Source: Dehalococcoidia bacterium (GTDB lineage Bacteria; Chloroflexota; Dehalococcoidia; SHYB01). From it: DNA of 64,000 nucleotides. Positions 2,266-6,369 of the stretch are shown one piece after another (the stretch's first letter is position 1; every line of letters begins with the position of its first letter). The notes under the pieces were generated by a model. That model did no database searches. It worked only from the letters and a program-made list of their open reading frames with translations, and was not told the DNA's origin. A program made the position numbers and the translations under genes. The stretch covers positions 1,059,533-1,123,532 of the forward strand of contig OZ242299.1 of assembly GCA_965207995.1 (NCBI GenBank), written 5' to 3'.

Positions 2266-2932
2266 GATGCCGCTTTCTTATTGTCAAACACAGAAGCGCG
2301 CCGCGCGGCGCTTCGTCCGATGGCTGGCGCCCGCGGCGCTGGCGGTGGCGGCGGCCGCCTGCGGCGGGCCCGAGGAAGCTCCGGCTTCTCCACCGCCACC
2401 CACGCCGGAGACCATAACTGTCGCCGACGCGGGCAGGCTCTTCAGCCTCGTAATTCCGTCGAACTGGCGCGGAGAGCGCATCTCCGACCCCACCGGAAAG
2501 TCGCTCACCGCTCGCCGGGCCATTGAGGGAACCGAACCCCTTCCCGAGGGTCTGCTGCTGTTCTCGGCGGGTTTCCCCGCCAGGGAGGGCGTCCTCGAAC
2601 CTCGCGTCGGAGTCACCATCGAGCCCGCCGCCACGGACGGACTCGACGCCTTCGTAGACGCCGCGCTGGCCCGCACGCGGGAGGCGTTTGTGTCCTTCAC
2701 GTTGATCGACCGGCGCGGCGAGCAGGACGCCGGCGGCCCGGGCTCGGTGCGCACCGAGCACCGCGGGGGCGTCGAGGGCGCCCAGGAGGTGCGCTTCCTC
2801 CAACGGTTCGTCGGCCAAGCCGGTGTGGTGTGGACGGTAGCCTGCGGCGGCCCGGCGGCGGACTGGGACGGCTACGCCGTCCACTGCGAGCGCGCCGTGG
2901 AGAGCCTCGAGATTCTGGTCACCGCGCCCTAG
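2266..2932 (+). CDS. hypothetical lipoprotein
   Basis: Internal ATG 2266 of track ORF 2150..2932 gives MPLSYCQTQKRAARRFVRWLAPAALAVAAAAC: a basic N-region, hydrophobic core and lipobox Cys, followed by a Pro-rich tether. Confidence 0.6.
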
Positions 2933-4200
2933 AGCTCGAAGGCGAGGGGCTCCTCTCCGATCACCTGCTCGGCGCGCAGCACGTCAACGGCGGCGGGGTC
3001 GAGGCCCAGCAACTTGCTGAAGACGTACTCGTTGTGCTTACCCAGCGGAGGGGGCGGCTCGCGGACGTCCATGCGCTGGCCGTCGAAGATCCACGGCGAC
3101 GTCGGCAGCGGCCAGACTCCGTGGGGCCCGAGGTCGACGTCCTGGAACAAATCGCGCTCGGCGAAGTGCTCGTCGGCGAACATCTCCCGCTGGGTGCGGA
3201 CAACGCCGGCGGGGACGCCCGCGGCCTGCAGTCGGCGCAGGAGACCGGGGCCGTCCTCATCGGCGACGGCGGCGCCGAGGGCGGCGTCCACCGCCTCGCG
3301 GTCGGCGACGCGCCCTGCATTCCGCGCCCACCCTGTACCGGCGAGCGTCGGCGGTCGCCCCAGCACCTCGACAAGGCGCTCCCAGGCGGCGTCGCTAGAA
3401 ATCGAGAGTGCGAGCCAGGCATCGTCGCCGCGGCAGCGGTAGGCCCCGTGCGGGGCTTCGTCCCGCTTGGCGTTGCCCACGGAGACGGCGGACCGTCCGT
3501 TCATGGCGAGGTCGACGATGATCTCGCCCAGGTGCGCGATGGAGGCCTCGACGCCGGAGATTTCGAGGAAGAGCCCCTTGCCGTCGCCGGCGCGCTTGTA
3601 GAGCCCCATCACGGCGGCCATGGCGGCGGTGATCGCGGTCACGGTATCGGTGTGGGTGCTGTAGCTGGCGGTGTCGGGCGTCGAGTCCGGGTAATGGCGC
3701 AGCCAGGAATAGCCGGCGAAGCCGTCCATGGCCCCGCCCATGGTCACCCGGTTCCGATAGGGCCCGGTGACCCCGAACCCTGAGACACTGGTGTACACCA
3801 GGTCGGGGCGCACCTTGCGCAGCTGCTCGTAGCCGACGCCGAGCTTCTCCGGGACGCCGGTCACCATGTTGGTGTGCACCACGTCGCTGACCTCGACGAG
3901 CCGGTAGAAGGCGTCGAGGCCGCGCGGGTTGCCGAGGTCGATGGTGGCGCTGCGCTTGTTCCGGTTGGCGCCGACGAAGGCCGCGTTGACGTCGTAGGGC
4001 CGCTCGGGAGACCCCTTGCCGGGGTAGGCATCGAGACCCGGCGGGGCCACGATCGGCCCGCGGGTGTGGTCCATGCGCTGAATCGCCTCGACCTTGATGA
4101 CCTCCGCTCCGAGGAAGCCCAGGATCTCGGCGGCAAAGGGGCCCGCCCAGCCTTCGGCCAGCTCGAGCACGCGAAACCCTGTCAACGGCGGCCCGTCCAC
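2929..4200 (-). CDS. family III CoA-transferase (CaiB/BaiF), paralog 1
   Basis: VDGPPLTGFRVLELAEGWAGPFAAEILGFLGAEVIKVE matches the N-terminal motif. The track ORF runs to 4437, but family similarity begins at GTG 4200. Asp-type active-site segment THTDTVTAITAAMAAVMGL. Confidence 0.85.
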   Translation of the reverse strand: MDGPPLTGFRVLELAEGWAGPFAAEILGFLGAEVIKVEAIQRMDHTRGPIVAPPGLDAYPGKGSPERPYDVNAAFVGANRNKRSATIDLGNPRGLDAFYRLVEVSDVVHTNMVTGVPEKLGVGYEQLRKVRPDLVYTSVSGFGVTGPYRNRVTMGGAMDGFAGYSWLRHYPDSTPDTASYSTHTDTVTAITAAMAAVMGLYKRAGDGKGLFLEISGVEASIAHLGEIIVDLAMNGRSAVSVGNAKRDEAPHGAYRCRGDDAWLALSISSDAAWERLVEVLGRPPTLAGTGWARNAGRVADREAVDAALGAAVADEDGPGLLRRLQAAGVPAGVVRTQREMFADEHFAERDLFQDVDLGPHGVWPLPTSPWIFDGQRMDVREPPPPLGKHNEYVFSKLLGLDPAAVDVLRAEQVIGEEPLAFEL

Positions 4201-4331
4201 TCGCCCGCTCCCCGGCCCCGTGGCCGGCGGCCATTGTACACAGCGGCACGTGGAGCGAAGACTCTCCGGTAGCGTAAGGCACGTATATTGAATGTGGCGG
4301 AACGCATCGGACGAGCATGGAGGAGTCGAAG

Positions 4332-5180
4332 ATGCCCGGCGTGGTAACCCTCTCGTGGGAGGACGTAGACGAACGTTTCGACGGGCTGCTTCCCGCGGGG
4401 ACGCGCAAGGTCTACGGCATCCCGCGCGGTGGGGCAATCGTCGCCGGGCTCCTTCGCCAGCGCGGCATACAGGTGGTGGGGCCGGACGAGGCTGAGGTGA
4501 TCGTCGACGACATCATCGACAGCGGCGAGACCGCCAAGCGCTACGCCGCGCGGTACGGCAAGCCCATCGCCGTCCTGGTCAATAAGGAGCAAGAGGGTCT
4601 GATGGGCGTCTGGGTGGAGTTCCCGTGGGAGGGCGGCCGGGAGGGCGACCTGCGGGACGGCCTCCGGCGCATCATCCAGACCATCGGCGACGATCCCGAC
4701 CGGACGGGGCTCATCGAGACCCCGGACCGCGTCATTGCAGTCTGGAACGAGCTCTTTTCGGGCTACCGCGAGCAGCCCGGCGACGTCATCGAGTGGGTCC
4801 CGGCCGGCGAGGGCGGCATGGTCCTCGTCCGCGGCGTGCCCTTCCGCTCGACCTGCGAACGCCACCTGCTCCCATTCTGGGGCGAGATCGACGCCGCCTA
4901 CCTGCCCGCGGGGCGCGCTATCACGCCGGCCAGCCTCACCCATCTCATCGAGGTCTGCTCGCGCCGACTCCAGACTCAGGAGGCCATGACGAGCCTGATA
5001 GGACAGGCGCTCGACGAGGGCGAGGCCGCAGGCGTTGCCGTGGCCGTCCGCGCCCAGCGCGTCTGCGCCGCTCCCCCGGCGTCGGCGCCCAACGGCGGGC
5101 TCCGCACGACCACGTACTTCTCCGGCGCGTTCGAGATGGACGCGGCGGCAAGGGCGGAGTTTCTGCACGGGGACGGGTGA
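4332..5180 (+). CDS. fusion protein: minimal Gpt-like phosphoribosyltransferase domain + GTP cyclohydrolase I (FolE)-like T-fold domain
   Basis: GGAGGAG at 4319-4325 lies 6 nt before ATG 4332. N-terminal domain: GIPRGGAIVAGLL, PRPP motif VIVDDIIDSGETAK, and VWVEFPWE. C-terminal domain: ETPDRVIAVWNELFSGY, STCERHLLPF, RRLQTQEAMT and GVAVAVRAQRVCA...TTTYFSGAF...RAEFL, which align to FolE. Confidence 0.8.
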   Translation: MPGVVTLSWEDVDERFDGLLPAGTRKVYGIPRGGAIVAGLLRQRGIQVVGPDEAEVIVDDIIDSGETAKRYAARYGKPIAVLVNKEQEGLMGVWVEFPWEGGREGDLRDGLRRIIQTIGDDPDRTGLIETPDRVIAVWNELFSGYREQPGDVIEWVPAGEGGMVLVRGVPFRSTCERHLLPFWGEIDAAYLPAGRAITPASLTHLIEVCSRRLQTQEAMTSLIGQALDEGEAAGVAVAVRAQRVCAAPPASAPNGGLRTTTYFSGAFEMDAAARAEFLHGDG

Positions 5181-5184
5181 TCCC

Positions 5185-6369
5185 CTAAGGGTCTTCATCC
5201 GGCGCGATGCCGGCCTCGGCGAGGACTTGCGCCGTGTGCTCGCCCAAGAGTGGAGCGCGGCCCGGGGATTCCTGAGCGCCGCCTTCATCGGGAGCATGGG
5301 GCCGGAAGGGCAGGCCCGGCGCGGCGATGGCGCCGGCCTCGGGATGTTCCGTTCGCTGGAAGAAGCCGCGCTCCGTCAGGTGCGGGTCGTCGAGCATGTC
5401 GGCCGCGTCGTAGACCGGCGCGACCGGGAAACGGGCCGCCGCCGCGGCGTCGAAAATCTCTTCCCGCGTGTGCTCGGCAAGCCACTCGTACCAGATCACG
5501 CGGAACTCGTCGAAGTGCGCGACGCGGGAGTCGCGGTCGGCGAACTTGGGCGAGCCGATTAGCTCGGGCCGGCCGATCATCTCGAAGATGCGGGGCCACC
5601 AGGCCTCGCCGCGCCCCACGCCCTGCACAGCGATGTAGCCGTCCTTGCAGGGATAGCCGCCGACCAGGTAGGGGCCAAAGACGTCGTTGCCCACGCGCTT
5701 CGAGGGCTCGCCGCCGTAGGCGAAGTTGGGGAAGCGCACCTCGGGGTTGCAGACCAGCGCCTCGGCGATGGAGAAGTCGATGTACGAGCCGCGCCCGGTG
5801 AGGCGGGCCGAAAGGGCCGCGGCGGCCAGCCCCACCGCGGCGACACCGCCGGCGTAGTAGAGCCCCTGGTTTTCGGCGAGCTTGAGCGGCTCGCGCTCCG
5901 GGTCGCCGAGGTTGTACATCGGCCCGCACATGGCCTGGAAGACGAGGTCGGAGCCCTGCCAGTCGCGCTGCGGCCCCGTCTTGCCGAAGGGACTGATCGA
6001 CATCATGACGAGGCGGGGGTTCGACGCCGCGAGCGATTCGTAGGAGAGTCCCAGGCCGTCGAGGACGCCGGGCCCTTCGCTCTCCACGAGTGCCCCGGCC
6101 CGCCCGGCGAGACGGCAGAGAACGGCGCGGTCCCGGTCGTCGTGCACGTCGAGAACGACGCTGCGCTTACCGCCGTTGAGGTAGAGGAAAAGGGCACTCG
6201 TCTCGGGGTGGGGCTGGTCGCCGGCGAAGGGGCCGGCGCGGCGGGCCTCGTCGCCCCCCGGCGGTTCGACCTTGACGACGTCGGCCCCGAACTGGGCGAG
6301 CTGCTTCGTGCAGAAGGGCCCGGCGGCCCCCTGCGTGAGGTCGAGGACGGTGAGCCCGTCCATCAGCAT
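5185..6369 (-). CDS. family III CoA-transferase, paralog 2 (no Asp at the catalytic position)
   Basis: MLMDGLTVLDLTQGAAGPFCTKQLAQFGADVVKVEPPGGDEARR. The active-site-equivalent segment is LYYAGGVAAVGLAAAAL. Confidence 0.85.
   Translation of the reverse strand: MLMDGLTVLDLTQGAAGPFCTKQLAQFGADVVKVEPPGGDEARRAGPFAGDQPHPETSALFLYLNGGKRSVVLDVHDDRDRAVLCRLAGRAGALVESEGPGVLDGLGLSYESLAASNPRLVMMSISPFGKTGPQRDWQGSDLVFQAMCGPMYNLGDPEREPLKLAENQGLYYAGGVAAVGLAAAALSARLTGRGSYIDFSIAEALVCNPEVRFPNFAYGGEPSKRVGNDVFGPYLVGGYPCKDGYIAVQGVGRGEAWWPRIFEMIGRPELIGSPKFADRDSRVAHFDEFRVIWYEWLAEHTREEIFDAAAAARFPVAPVYDAADMLDDPHLTERGFFQRTEHPEAGAIAAPGLPFRPHAPDEGGAQESPGRAPLLGEHTAQVLAEAGIAPDEDP

Follow-up and report, generated by a model that had tools for sequence, protein, structure and literature searches.

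Phages that replace guanine with 7-deazaguanines widely carry a fusion of a small phosphoribosyltransferase (PRTase) domain to GTP cyclohydrolase I (FolE). In cultured phages the fusion lies between queD and dpdA/tgt and is annotated only as 'GTP cyclohydrolase I', as in the Queuovirinae PaMx25, NP1 and JG012 of Pseudomonas, in Sphingomonas phage MMDA13 (gp31) and in Vibrio phage VpKK5. In our full-text literature searches, neither a PRTase-FolE fusion nor a dead FolE turned up, and the main paper that we checked on phage 7-deazaguanine pathways mentions no phosphoribosyl domain on FolE. A PRTase genetically coupled to FolE, QueD and QueE is also a feature of 7-deazapurine nucleoside biosynthesis, where ToyH is the PRTase of the toyocamycin pathway. 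In tubercidin clusters, a PF00156 PRTase acts on 7-carboxy-7-deazaguanine (CDG) (bioRxiv 10.64898/2026.04.15.718813). These enzymes are full-size, separate proteins of actinomycete secondary-metabolite clusters, and the likeness to the fusion noted here is one of genetic coupling. Here, we analysed a stretch of 64,000 nucleotides (hereafter the window) from a Dehalococcoidia bacterium of the Chloroflexota (GenBank assembly GCA_965207995.1, contig OZ242299.1, positions 1,059,533 to 1,123,532 of the forward strand), which holds a gene with the same two-domain architecture as the phage fusion and with an eroded FolE active site.

The gene occupies 4332..5180 on the plus strand, as do all of its parts described below, and forms one open frame of 282 codons followed by TGA. 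It joins a loop-less Gpt-like PRTase domain (residues 1-100, 4332..4631) to a FolE-type T-fold domain (residues 103-282, 4638..5177), and the AlphaFold2 (AF2) model of the full-length protein reaches a predicted local distance difference test (pLDDT) score of 93.5. A first-pass annotation, made from the DNA alone, had proposed that two guanine-related folds are joined in one chain, which is borne out by the Pfam match to FolE together with profile and structure matches of the N-terminal domain to xanthine-guanine PRTase (XGPRT, or Gpt). The concern that two separate genes had been joined by an assembly or frameshift artefact can be dismissed because five species, and more than 100 independent assemblies, share the same 282-codon frame. 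We favour, with a probability of roughly 0.45, the reading that this soil-type bacterium keeps a domesticated phage gene in which the mini-PRTase is the working part, seated on a dead T-fold scaffold and converting a base and phosphoribosyl pyrophosphate (PRPP) into a nucleotide.

The C-terminal half is clearly homologous to FolE (PF01227, TIGR00063; structures 1wm9, 1fbx and 1a8r), and both the secondary structure and the self-association predicted for it resemble those of FolE. The Pfam GTP_cyclohydroI model (PF01227) matches residues 111-279 with 141 bits against a cut-off of 27 (E = 3.1e-41), and the T. thermophilus FolE structure 1wm9 aligns to this half with E = 5.5e-28 (HMMER). All NCBIfam FolE models score below their cut-offs (TIGR00063, 121 against 181.6; NF006825, 145 against 174; NF006826, 135 against 162; NF006824, 71 against 202). 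We read the substitutions from the HMMER alignment to 1wm9 and from an alignment of 21 sequences, and assigned residue numbers by motif position on what we take to be the numbering of the E. coli enzyme. C175-E176-R177-H178 (4854..4865) replaces CEHH, with Arg in place of His112. T198-P199-A200-S201 (4923..4934) replaces G-L-S135-K136, by which triphosphate binding and the catalytic Ser and Lys are lost. In Q216-E217-A218 (4977..4985) the guanine-recognising Gln151 and Glu152 are kept and Arg153 has become Ala, while R243-V-C245-A-A-P-P249-A250 (5058..5081), the segment with the lowest pLDDT within the fold (about 78), replaces H179-x-C181-x-x-x-R185-G186. The equivalent of Arg139 is H204. Compared with FolE, the protein thus has Arg for His112 and His179, replacements of Ser135, Lys136, Arg153, Arg185 and Gly186, and an extra N-terminal domain.

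The by-eye register of the first-pass annotation proved essentially right. Its change of STCEHH to STCERH, the replacement of both catalytic His by Arg (R177 and R243), the change of QER to QEA and the loss of the phosphate-binding GLSK and Arg motifs (A200, S201, A218 and P249) all recur in our alignments; GLSK is indeed replaced, although by TPAS rather than by PASL, one residue off. The Zn ligands were said to be kept, which is true of the window protein (C175, H178 and C245, the equivalents of Cys110, His113 and Cys181, together with Glu111) but not of all its orthologues, since P0004 has CERN and C181F, and P0011 (G002, confirmed on DNA) has C110S and C181P. Position 177 is His in 84/84 canonical fusions and Arg in 8/9 members of the window's clade; the equivalent of His179 is likewise His in all 84 and is R243 in the window protein. 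With both catalytic His and most of the triphosphate-binding residues gone, the T-fold half almost certainly does not function as a GTP cyclohydrolase I, as the earlier annotation had suspected, and in this lineage it would no longer turn over GTP. Four copies of residues 101-282 modelled together scored 0.62, against 0.00 for the best of three controls; in calibration, 20 of 30 proteins solved as pairs attained this mark, as did one of 23 solved as single chains, and the self-association runs had at least 56% of contacts in common with a partner pLDDT of at least 78. Since FolE decamers are present in the PDB, this result is to be read as likeness to them and not as binding. The dead half may have been retained as a folded, self-associating T-fold scaffold.

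For the N-terminal domain, Gpt/XGPRT is the best match in both sequence profile and fold (E. coli 1a95, 1nul and 4jls; Yersinia 5xtk and 6kp5). A profile of 95 N-domains matches the XGPRT structures 5xtk and 1a95 in two blocks (E = 9e-9). The best Foldseek matches of the AF2 model of residues 1-104 (pLDDT 93.9) are E. coli and Yersinia XGPRT, e.g., 4jls with a template modelling (TM) score of 0.67 by query and a probability of 1.0, and about the first 25 matches are all to XGPRT or purine PRTases (TM of 0.62-0.69 by query), which shows the PRTase core fold. The general PRTase model PF00156 is matched by 31 of the 95 family members at E <= 0.01. The window protein carries the motifs GIPRGG, VIVDDIIDSGET and VWVEFPWE. 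The first contains the pyrophosphate-loop motif P31-R32-G33-G34 (4422..4433; S36-R37-G-G in Gpt), which aligns to Gpt VSRGG and is invariant in 95/95 fusions. The second, the PRPP-binding motif (4497..4532; D59, D60, D63, S64, G65 and T67), aligns to Gpt residues 85-96, IVIDDLVDTGGT, so that D63 falls on the proposed catalytic Asp92. The third includes WVEFPWE (4611..4631), which matches Gpt W134-IEQPWD and whose W94 is the counterpart of Trp134, the base-stacking residue in the XGPRT structures.

Twelve positions are invariant in all 95 aligned N-domains (P31, R32, G33, G34, D59, D60, D63, S64, G65, W94, P98 and W99), which, by alignment with Gpt, we take to represent the pyrophosphate loop, the PRPP motif with the proposed catalytic Asp, and the base-stacking Trp. 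The domain thus has in common with Gpt the RGG loop, the DD..D(S/T)G.T motif, a Lys before the last strand and W-x-E-x-P-W-(D/E). It differs in being fused to a T-fold and about 50 residues shorter, lacking about 10 residues before Trp134 as well as Gpt residues 58-80. The latter form the flexible loop, to which nothing corresponds in the profile alignment, and the domain is only about 100 residues long. The first-pass annotation had likewise reported this segment as absent.

Erosion of the gene has been selective. We compared nine members of the window's clade at those columns in which conservation among 84 canonical fusions reaches 90% or more. In the T-fold half 11 of 39 such columns had changed, against none of the 17 that belong to the PRTase half (Fisher p = 0.024). 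All but one of the changed columns belong to the active site (His112, Gly133, Ser135, Lys136, Arg139, His179, Cys181, Arg185, Gly186 and a C-terminal Arg), the eleventh being an Asp, residue 161 of the window protein. The clade retains structural positions as well as the Gln-Glu pair that recognises guanine. R243, S201 and A250 are fixed in 9/9 members. The basal member (P0013, species G006) has CEHH and yet already shows the other losses, so that His179 and the phosphate-binding residues were lost first.

Both halves remain under purifying selection. Across the five species, which are separated by synonymous divergence (dS) of 0.16-0.51, all copies are uniformly 282 codons long with no stop or frameshift, and the ratio of non-synonymous to synonymous substitution rates (dN/dS, Nei-Gojobori) is 0.20-0.37 for the whole fusion, 0.11-0.29 for the N-domain and 0.24-0.42 for the T-fold half. 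Non-synonymous changes are fewer than expected under neutrality in both halves (binomial p from 2e-4 to 6e-9), and the GC content at third codon positions (GC3) is 0.89, the host value. Low dN/dS, an intact frame and host-like GC3 indicate that the gene is under selection and, as far as these codon comparisons reach, is not a neutral relic, although it is less constrained than a core enzyme. The protein offers a clear example of a pseudoenzyme, i.e., a T-fold deprived of exactly its active-site residues and still selectively maintained.

The ancestry of the gene leads to phages. A word-indexed protein search returned 319 relatives, more than 100 of which cover 90-100% of the query, and canonical FolE motifs are present in every relative that is less than about 50% identical. 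Where contigs of canonical fusions were read, they proved to be phage or prophage DNA in which the fusion immediately follows QueD (PTPS) and QueE (radical SAM). These phage proteins have the same two domains in 270-310 residues, the window protein being 34-47% identical to them over 89-98% of its length, with identical residues at the invariant N-domain positions. They keep CEHH, G-x-S-K, QER and H-x-C-x-x-x-R-G and adjoin QueD, QueE, QueC or DpdA; the window gene, in contrast, has lost those residues, has no QueD, QueE, QueC or DpdA neighbours, and is a solitary chromosomal gene that is passed on vertically in a single genus. A maximum-likelihood tree separates the fusions, as one clade, from host FolE (support 100, starred), and the chromosomal degenerate forms fall, on a long stem branch (1.04 changes per column), inside a starred set with three canonical fusions (P0017-P0019), two of which were traced to phage contigs. 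Judged from sequence and tree, the gene is a chromosomal, vertically inherited descendant of a phage mini-Gpt-FolE fusion. We read the pattern as one old capture from a phage into Dehalococcoidia, although the support in the tree does not prove a single event.

An exhaustive profile search extended the family to 1074 representative clusters with the N-domain at E <= 1e-10 and revealed other architectures. P0250 (L090 2967-4661), whose gene immediately follows QueC, QueD and QueE, joins the mini-PRTase to the type IB cyclohydrolase FolE2 (PF02649), which is not homologous to FolE. Stand-alone mini-PRTases of 106-152 residues also exist, one of them alongside ThyX and MazG-like genes in a nucleotide-metabolism module of a phage; recovering such forms needed the profile search, as a short-protein search with residues 1-104 gave six matches, all short and at least one of them labelled partial. 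In the closest canonical relatives (P0018, L068 2222-12312; P0019 contig), the gene order is QueD, QueE, the fusion, MazG-like, ribonucleotide reductase, adenylosuccinate synthetase (PurZ-like) and PolA, with no QueC or DpdA in view, which hints at a nucleotide-level, pre-replicative 7-deazapurine route with the PRTase loading the base onto PRPP. The PaMx25 fusion (NC_041953; L010 5862-6792) is annotated as two coding sequences, gp38 (hypothetical, in another frame) and folE gp37 of 191 residues, which is probably a mis-annotation because tblastn follows one frame over query residues 28-278. P0227 and P0233 are 582-583 residues long. In P0227, an intein that carries an HNH endonuclease (Pfam Intein_splicing and HNH_3) splits the FolE half, and P0233 (583 residues) has the same N-domain match at almost the same length.

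Within the window's genus, the full-length degenerate fusion occurs in five of seven genomes, with a fragment at a contig end in one more, and it is absent from 8/8 genomes of seven sister genera in the family. Gene order was read on two contigs (P0005 and P0013), and on both the neighbours are those of the window. Across the class, the N-domain is carried by 15 of 401 sampled genomes, in four families and six genera. The other Dehalococcoidia copies whose surroundings were read are chromosomal, three of them with unrelated metabolic neighbours. Each full-length copy among these has His112 replaced, giving CERH or CEEH (the latter in L089), with further losses that differ among them. Arg177 is common to nearly all chromosomal lineages (g1, g78, g115, g31 and P0098/P0104), while position 243 is R, F, C, H or Q and position 201 is S, N, D or E. 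Genus g125 has only the mini-PRTase and the first helices, in 149 residues, and tblastn found no T-fold remnant downstream of that gene. What looked like fusions interrupted by a stop in G039, G047 and G049 were rejected, each being a ThrC gene followed by an ordinary FolE.

How might such a gene serve its host? The phage fusion is the first enzyme of the 7-deazaguanine DNA-modification pathway, and the window gene descends from it. Since the FolE half has lost its catalytic residues and the small half is fully conserved, the small half probably does the work. That the domain was kept after the cyclohydrolase half died, and in one genus after it was deleted, further argues for a function of its own. 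This loop-less domain of about 100 residues keeps every PRPP-, pyrophosphate- and base-contacting residue common with Gpt, and it would bind PRPP together with a base of the 6-oxopurine type, be it guanine, xanthine, hypoxanthine or a 7-deazaguanine, to yield a nucleoside monophosphate. The host genome (93% complete) encodes PyrR, Apt, NadD-PyrE, Prs, ComF and PurF as its PRTase-fold proteins and yielded no Hpt, Gpt or Xpt, which makes the fusion N-domain the only candidate 6-oxopurine PRTase. Its activity would therefore give the genus a purine-base salvage step missing from the rest of the genome. No QueC scored above the cut-off in the host genome either, and a canonical FolE (250 bits; CEHH, GISK and AEHLCMTMRGV) is encoded elsewhere in it and in each sister species.

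Several observations weigh against this domesticated mini-PRTase. The flexible loop II of type I PRTases matters for catalysis in the enzymes studied, and with that loop absent the N-domain may only bind a ligand. The models for the fold are not convinced by the single sequence, as PF00156 reaches E = 0.088 on the window N-domain (12.6-15.8 against a cut-off of 26.3) and the Gpt model NF006613 scores 13.1 against a cut-off of 138. The dN/dS of the fusion is 2-4 times higher than the 0.04-0.15 measured for the housekeeping FolE of these genomes. Support for a single group of the 16 degenerate chromosomal forms is an SH-aLRT of 89, which is not starred, and the group includes long branches. Finally, the whole bacterial family is without Hpt, including seven genera without the fusion, so that the salvage gap is tolerated and does not itself call for the gene.

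Because the catalytic loop is missing, the main rival is a regulatory protein in which the mini-PRTase acts as a non-catalytic sensor or sponge for GMP, GTP, (p)ppGpp or PRPP on a dead T-fold oligomer. PRTase folds that only bind ligands are known (PurR, PyrR), the ppGpp-bound PRTase-like 5vog is among the Foldseek matches, and the occurrence of the phage domain on both FolE and FolE2 would fit a regulator of the GTP cyclohydrolase step. We nevertheless consider this rival doubtful, since the window's clade has no FolE activity to regulate and the domain is still fully conserved, and a stand-alone copy lies in a phage nucleotide-metabolism module without FolE. The invariance of D63 and D59-D60 in all 95 sequences points in the same direction, yet PRTase folds that only bind ligands also keep the PRPP motif.

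Two further readings concern the T-fold half itself. The first-pass annotation had suggested a new purine-, pterin- or deazapurine-type activity or a sensing role for it, in which case Arg177 and Arg243 in place of His, the retained Zn, and Gln216 and Glu217 reading guanine would form a rebuilt site that acts on or senses a purine, pterin or deazapurine without a triphosphate. The spread of Arg177 over nearly all chromosomal lineages, the fixation of R243, S201 and A250 within the clade, the retention of Q216 and E217 and the dN/dS of the T-fold half are all compatible with such a site. A new site should be conserved, however, and the replacements other than R177 differ between lineages, position 177 is His in G006, P0004 and P0011/G002 have dispensed with Zn ligands, and g125 has deleted the core; these observations look like erosion and not new construction, so that we regard the rebuilt site as improbable. 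A GTP cyclohydrolase I that still works with Arg in place of two His is the least credible reading by far. The window protein does have the Zn ligands, Glu111, Gln151 and Glu152, and its Pfam score is high, but neither His112 nor His179 varies among the 84 canonical fusions or in host FolE, Ser135, Lys136 and Arg185 are gone as well, orthologues lose Zn ligands, all FolE equivalog models stay below cut-off, and the genome has a proper FolE elsewhere. It is also quite unlikely that the gene is a functionless, slowly decaying relic of an old prophage. Its solitary position away from que and dpd genes, its dN/dS above that of host FolE and its long stem branch would suit a relic; the intact frame of constant length in five species, the significant deficit of non-synonymous changes in both halves, the confinement of erosion to the FolE active site and the host-like GC3 would not.

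If the small domain is indeed a working PRTase, then the window's clade would amount to a natural separation-of-function experiment, showing that the mini-PRTase needs no adjoining GTP cyclohydrolase activity. The window protein is in any event a clean one in which to study the function of the small domain. By extension, the loop-less mini-PRTase of hundreds of phage 7-deazaguanine clusters could be an autonomous minimal 6-oxopurine/7-deazapurine PRTase, here carried on a pseudoenzyme T-fold ring and supplying salvage where Hpt, Gpt and Xpt are lacking, a generalisation that we offer only tentatively. Automatic annotation names the gene 'GTP cyclohydrolase I', by which metabolic reconstructions of these Chloroflexota would gain a second, erroneous folE.

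A Shine-Dalgarno sequence, GGAGGAG, was read at 4319..4325 (plus strand), 6 nt before the ATG at 4332, and orthologues of the fusion gene begin with MPG at the same start codon. A consensus scan of 4100-5400 for promoters and terminators returned no sites, which is uninformative for a Chloroflexota genome of 70% GC. As first noted by eye, the gene is alone on the plus strand between two minus-strand family III CoA-transferase genes, one divergent and upstream (2929..4200; PF02515, E = 2.7e-88; start taken from a 423-residue orthologue on L003) and one convergent and downstream (5185..6369; PF02515, E = 1.2e-94). The wider surroundings of the fusion gene include genes for CoA-transferases, oxoacid:ferredoxin oxidoreductase, S16, RimM and YebC, and are not phage or prophage. 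The downstream CoA-transferase is intact in the window and is called as two pieces in two relatives (273 and 121 residues, L003 8858-10041; 276 and 37 residues, P0013 contig), where it may be decaying. On the P0013 contig a Fic gene is inserted after the fusion. The flanking CoA-transferase could not be used to locate the empty site in sister genera, as there are 24 to more than 100 paralogues per genome and the best match is 49% identical. Family III CoA-transferases are hugely expanded in this bacterial family, with 24 to 101 matches per genome in five sister-genus genomes (tblastn with the window's 394-residue copy, E <= 1e-30).

Elsewhere in the host genome, outside the window, there are one Tgt and two tandem PTPS/QueD-like genes (G000:C1:2602691-2603553 and C1:506393-507457), and the presence of Tgt and PTPS without QueC suggests that the host salvages a queuosine precursor rather than making it de novo. 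The host NadD is joined to PyrE in one protein of 383 residues (G000:C1:1547300-1549500; L064 872-2020, minus strand).

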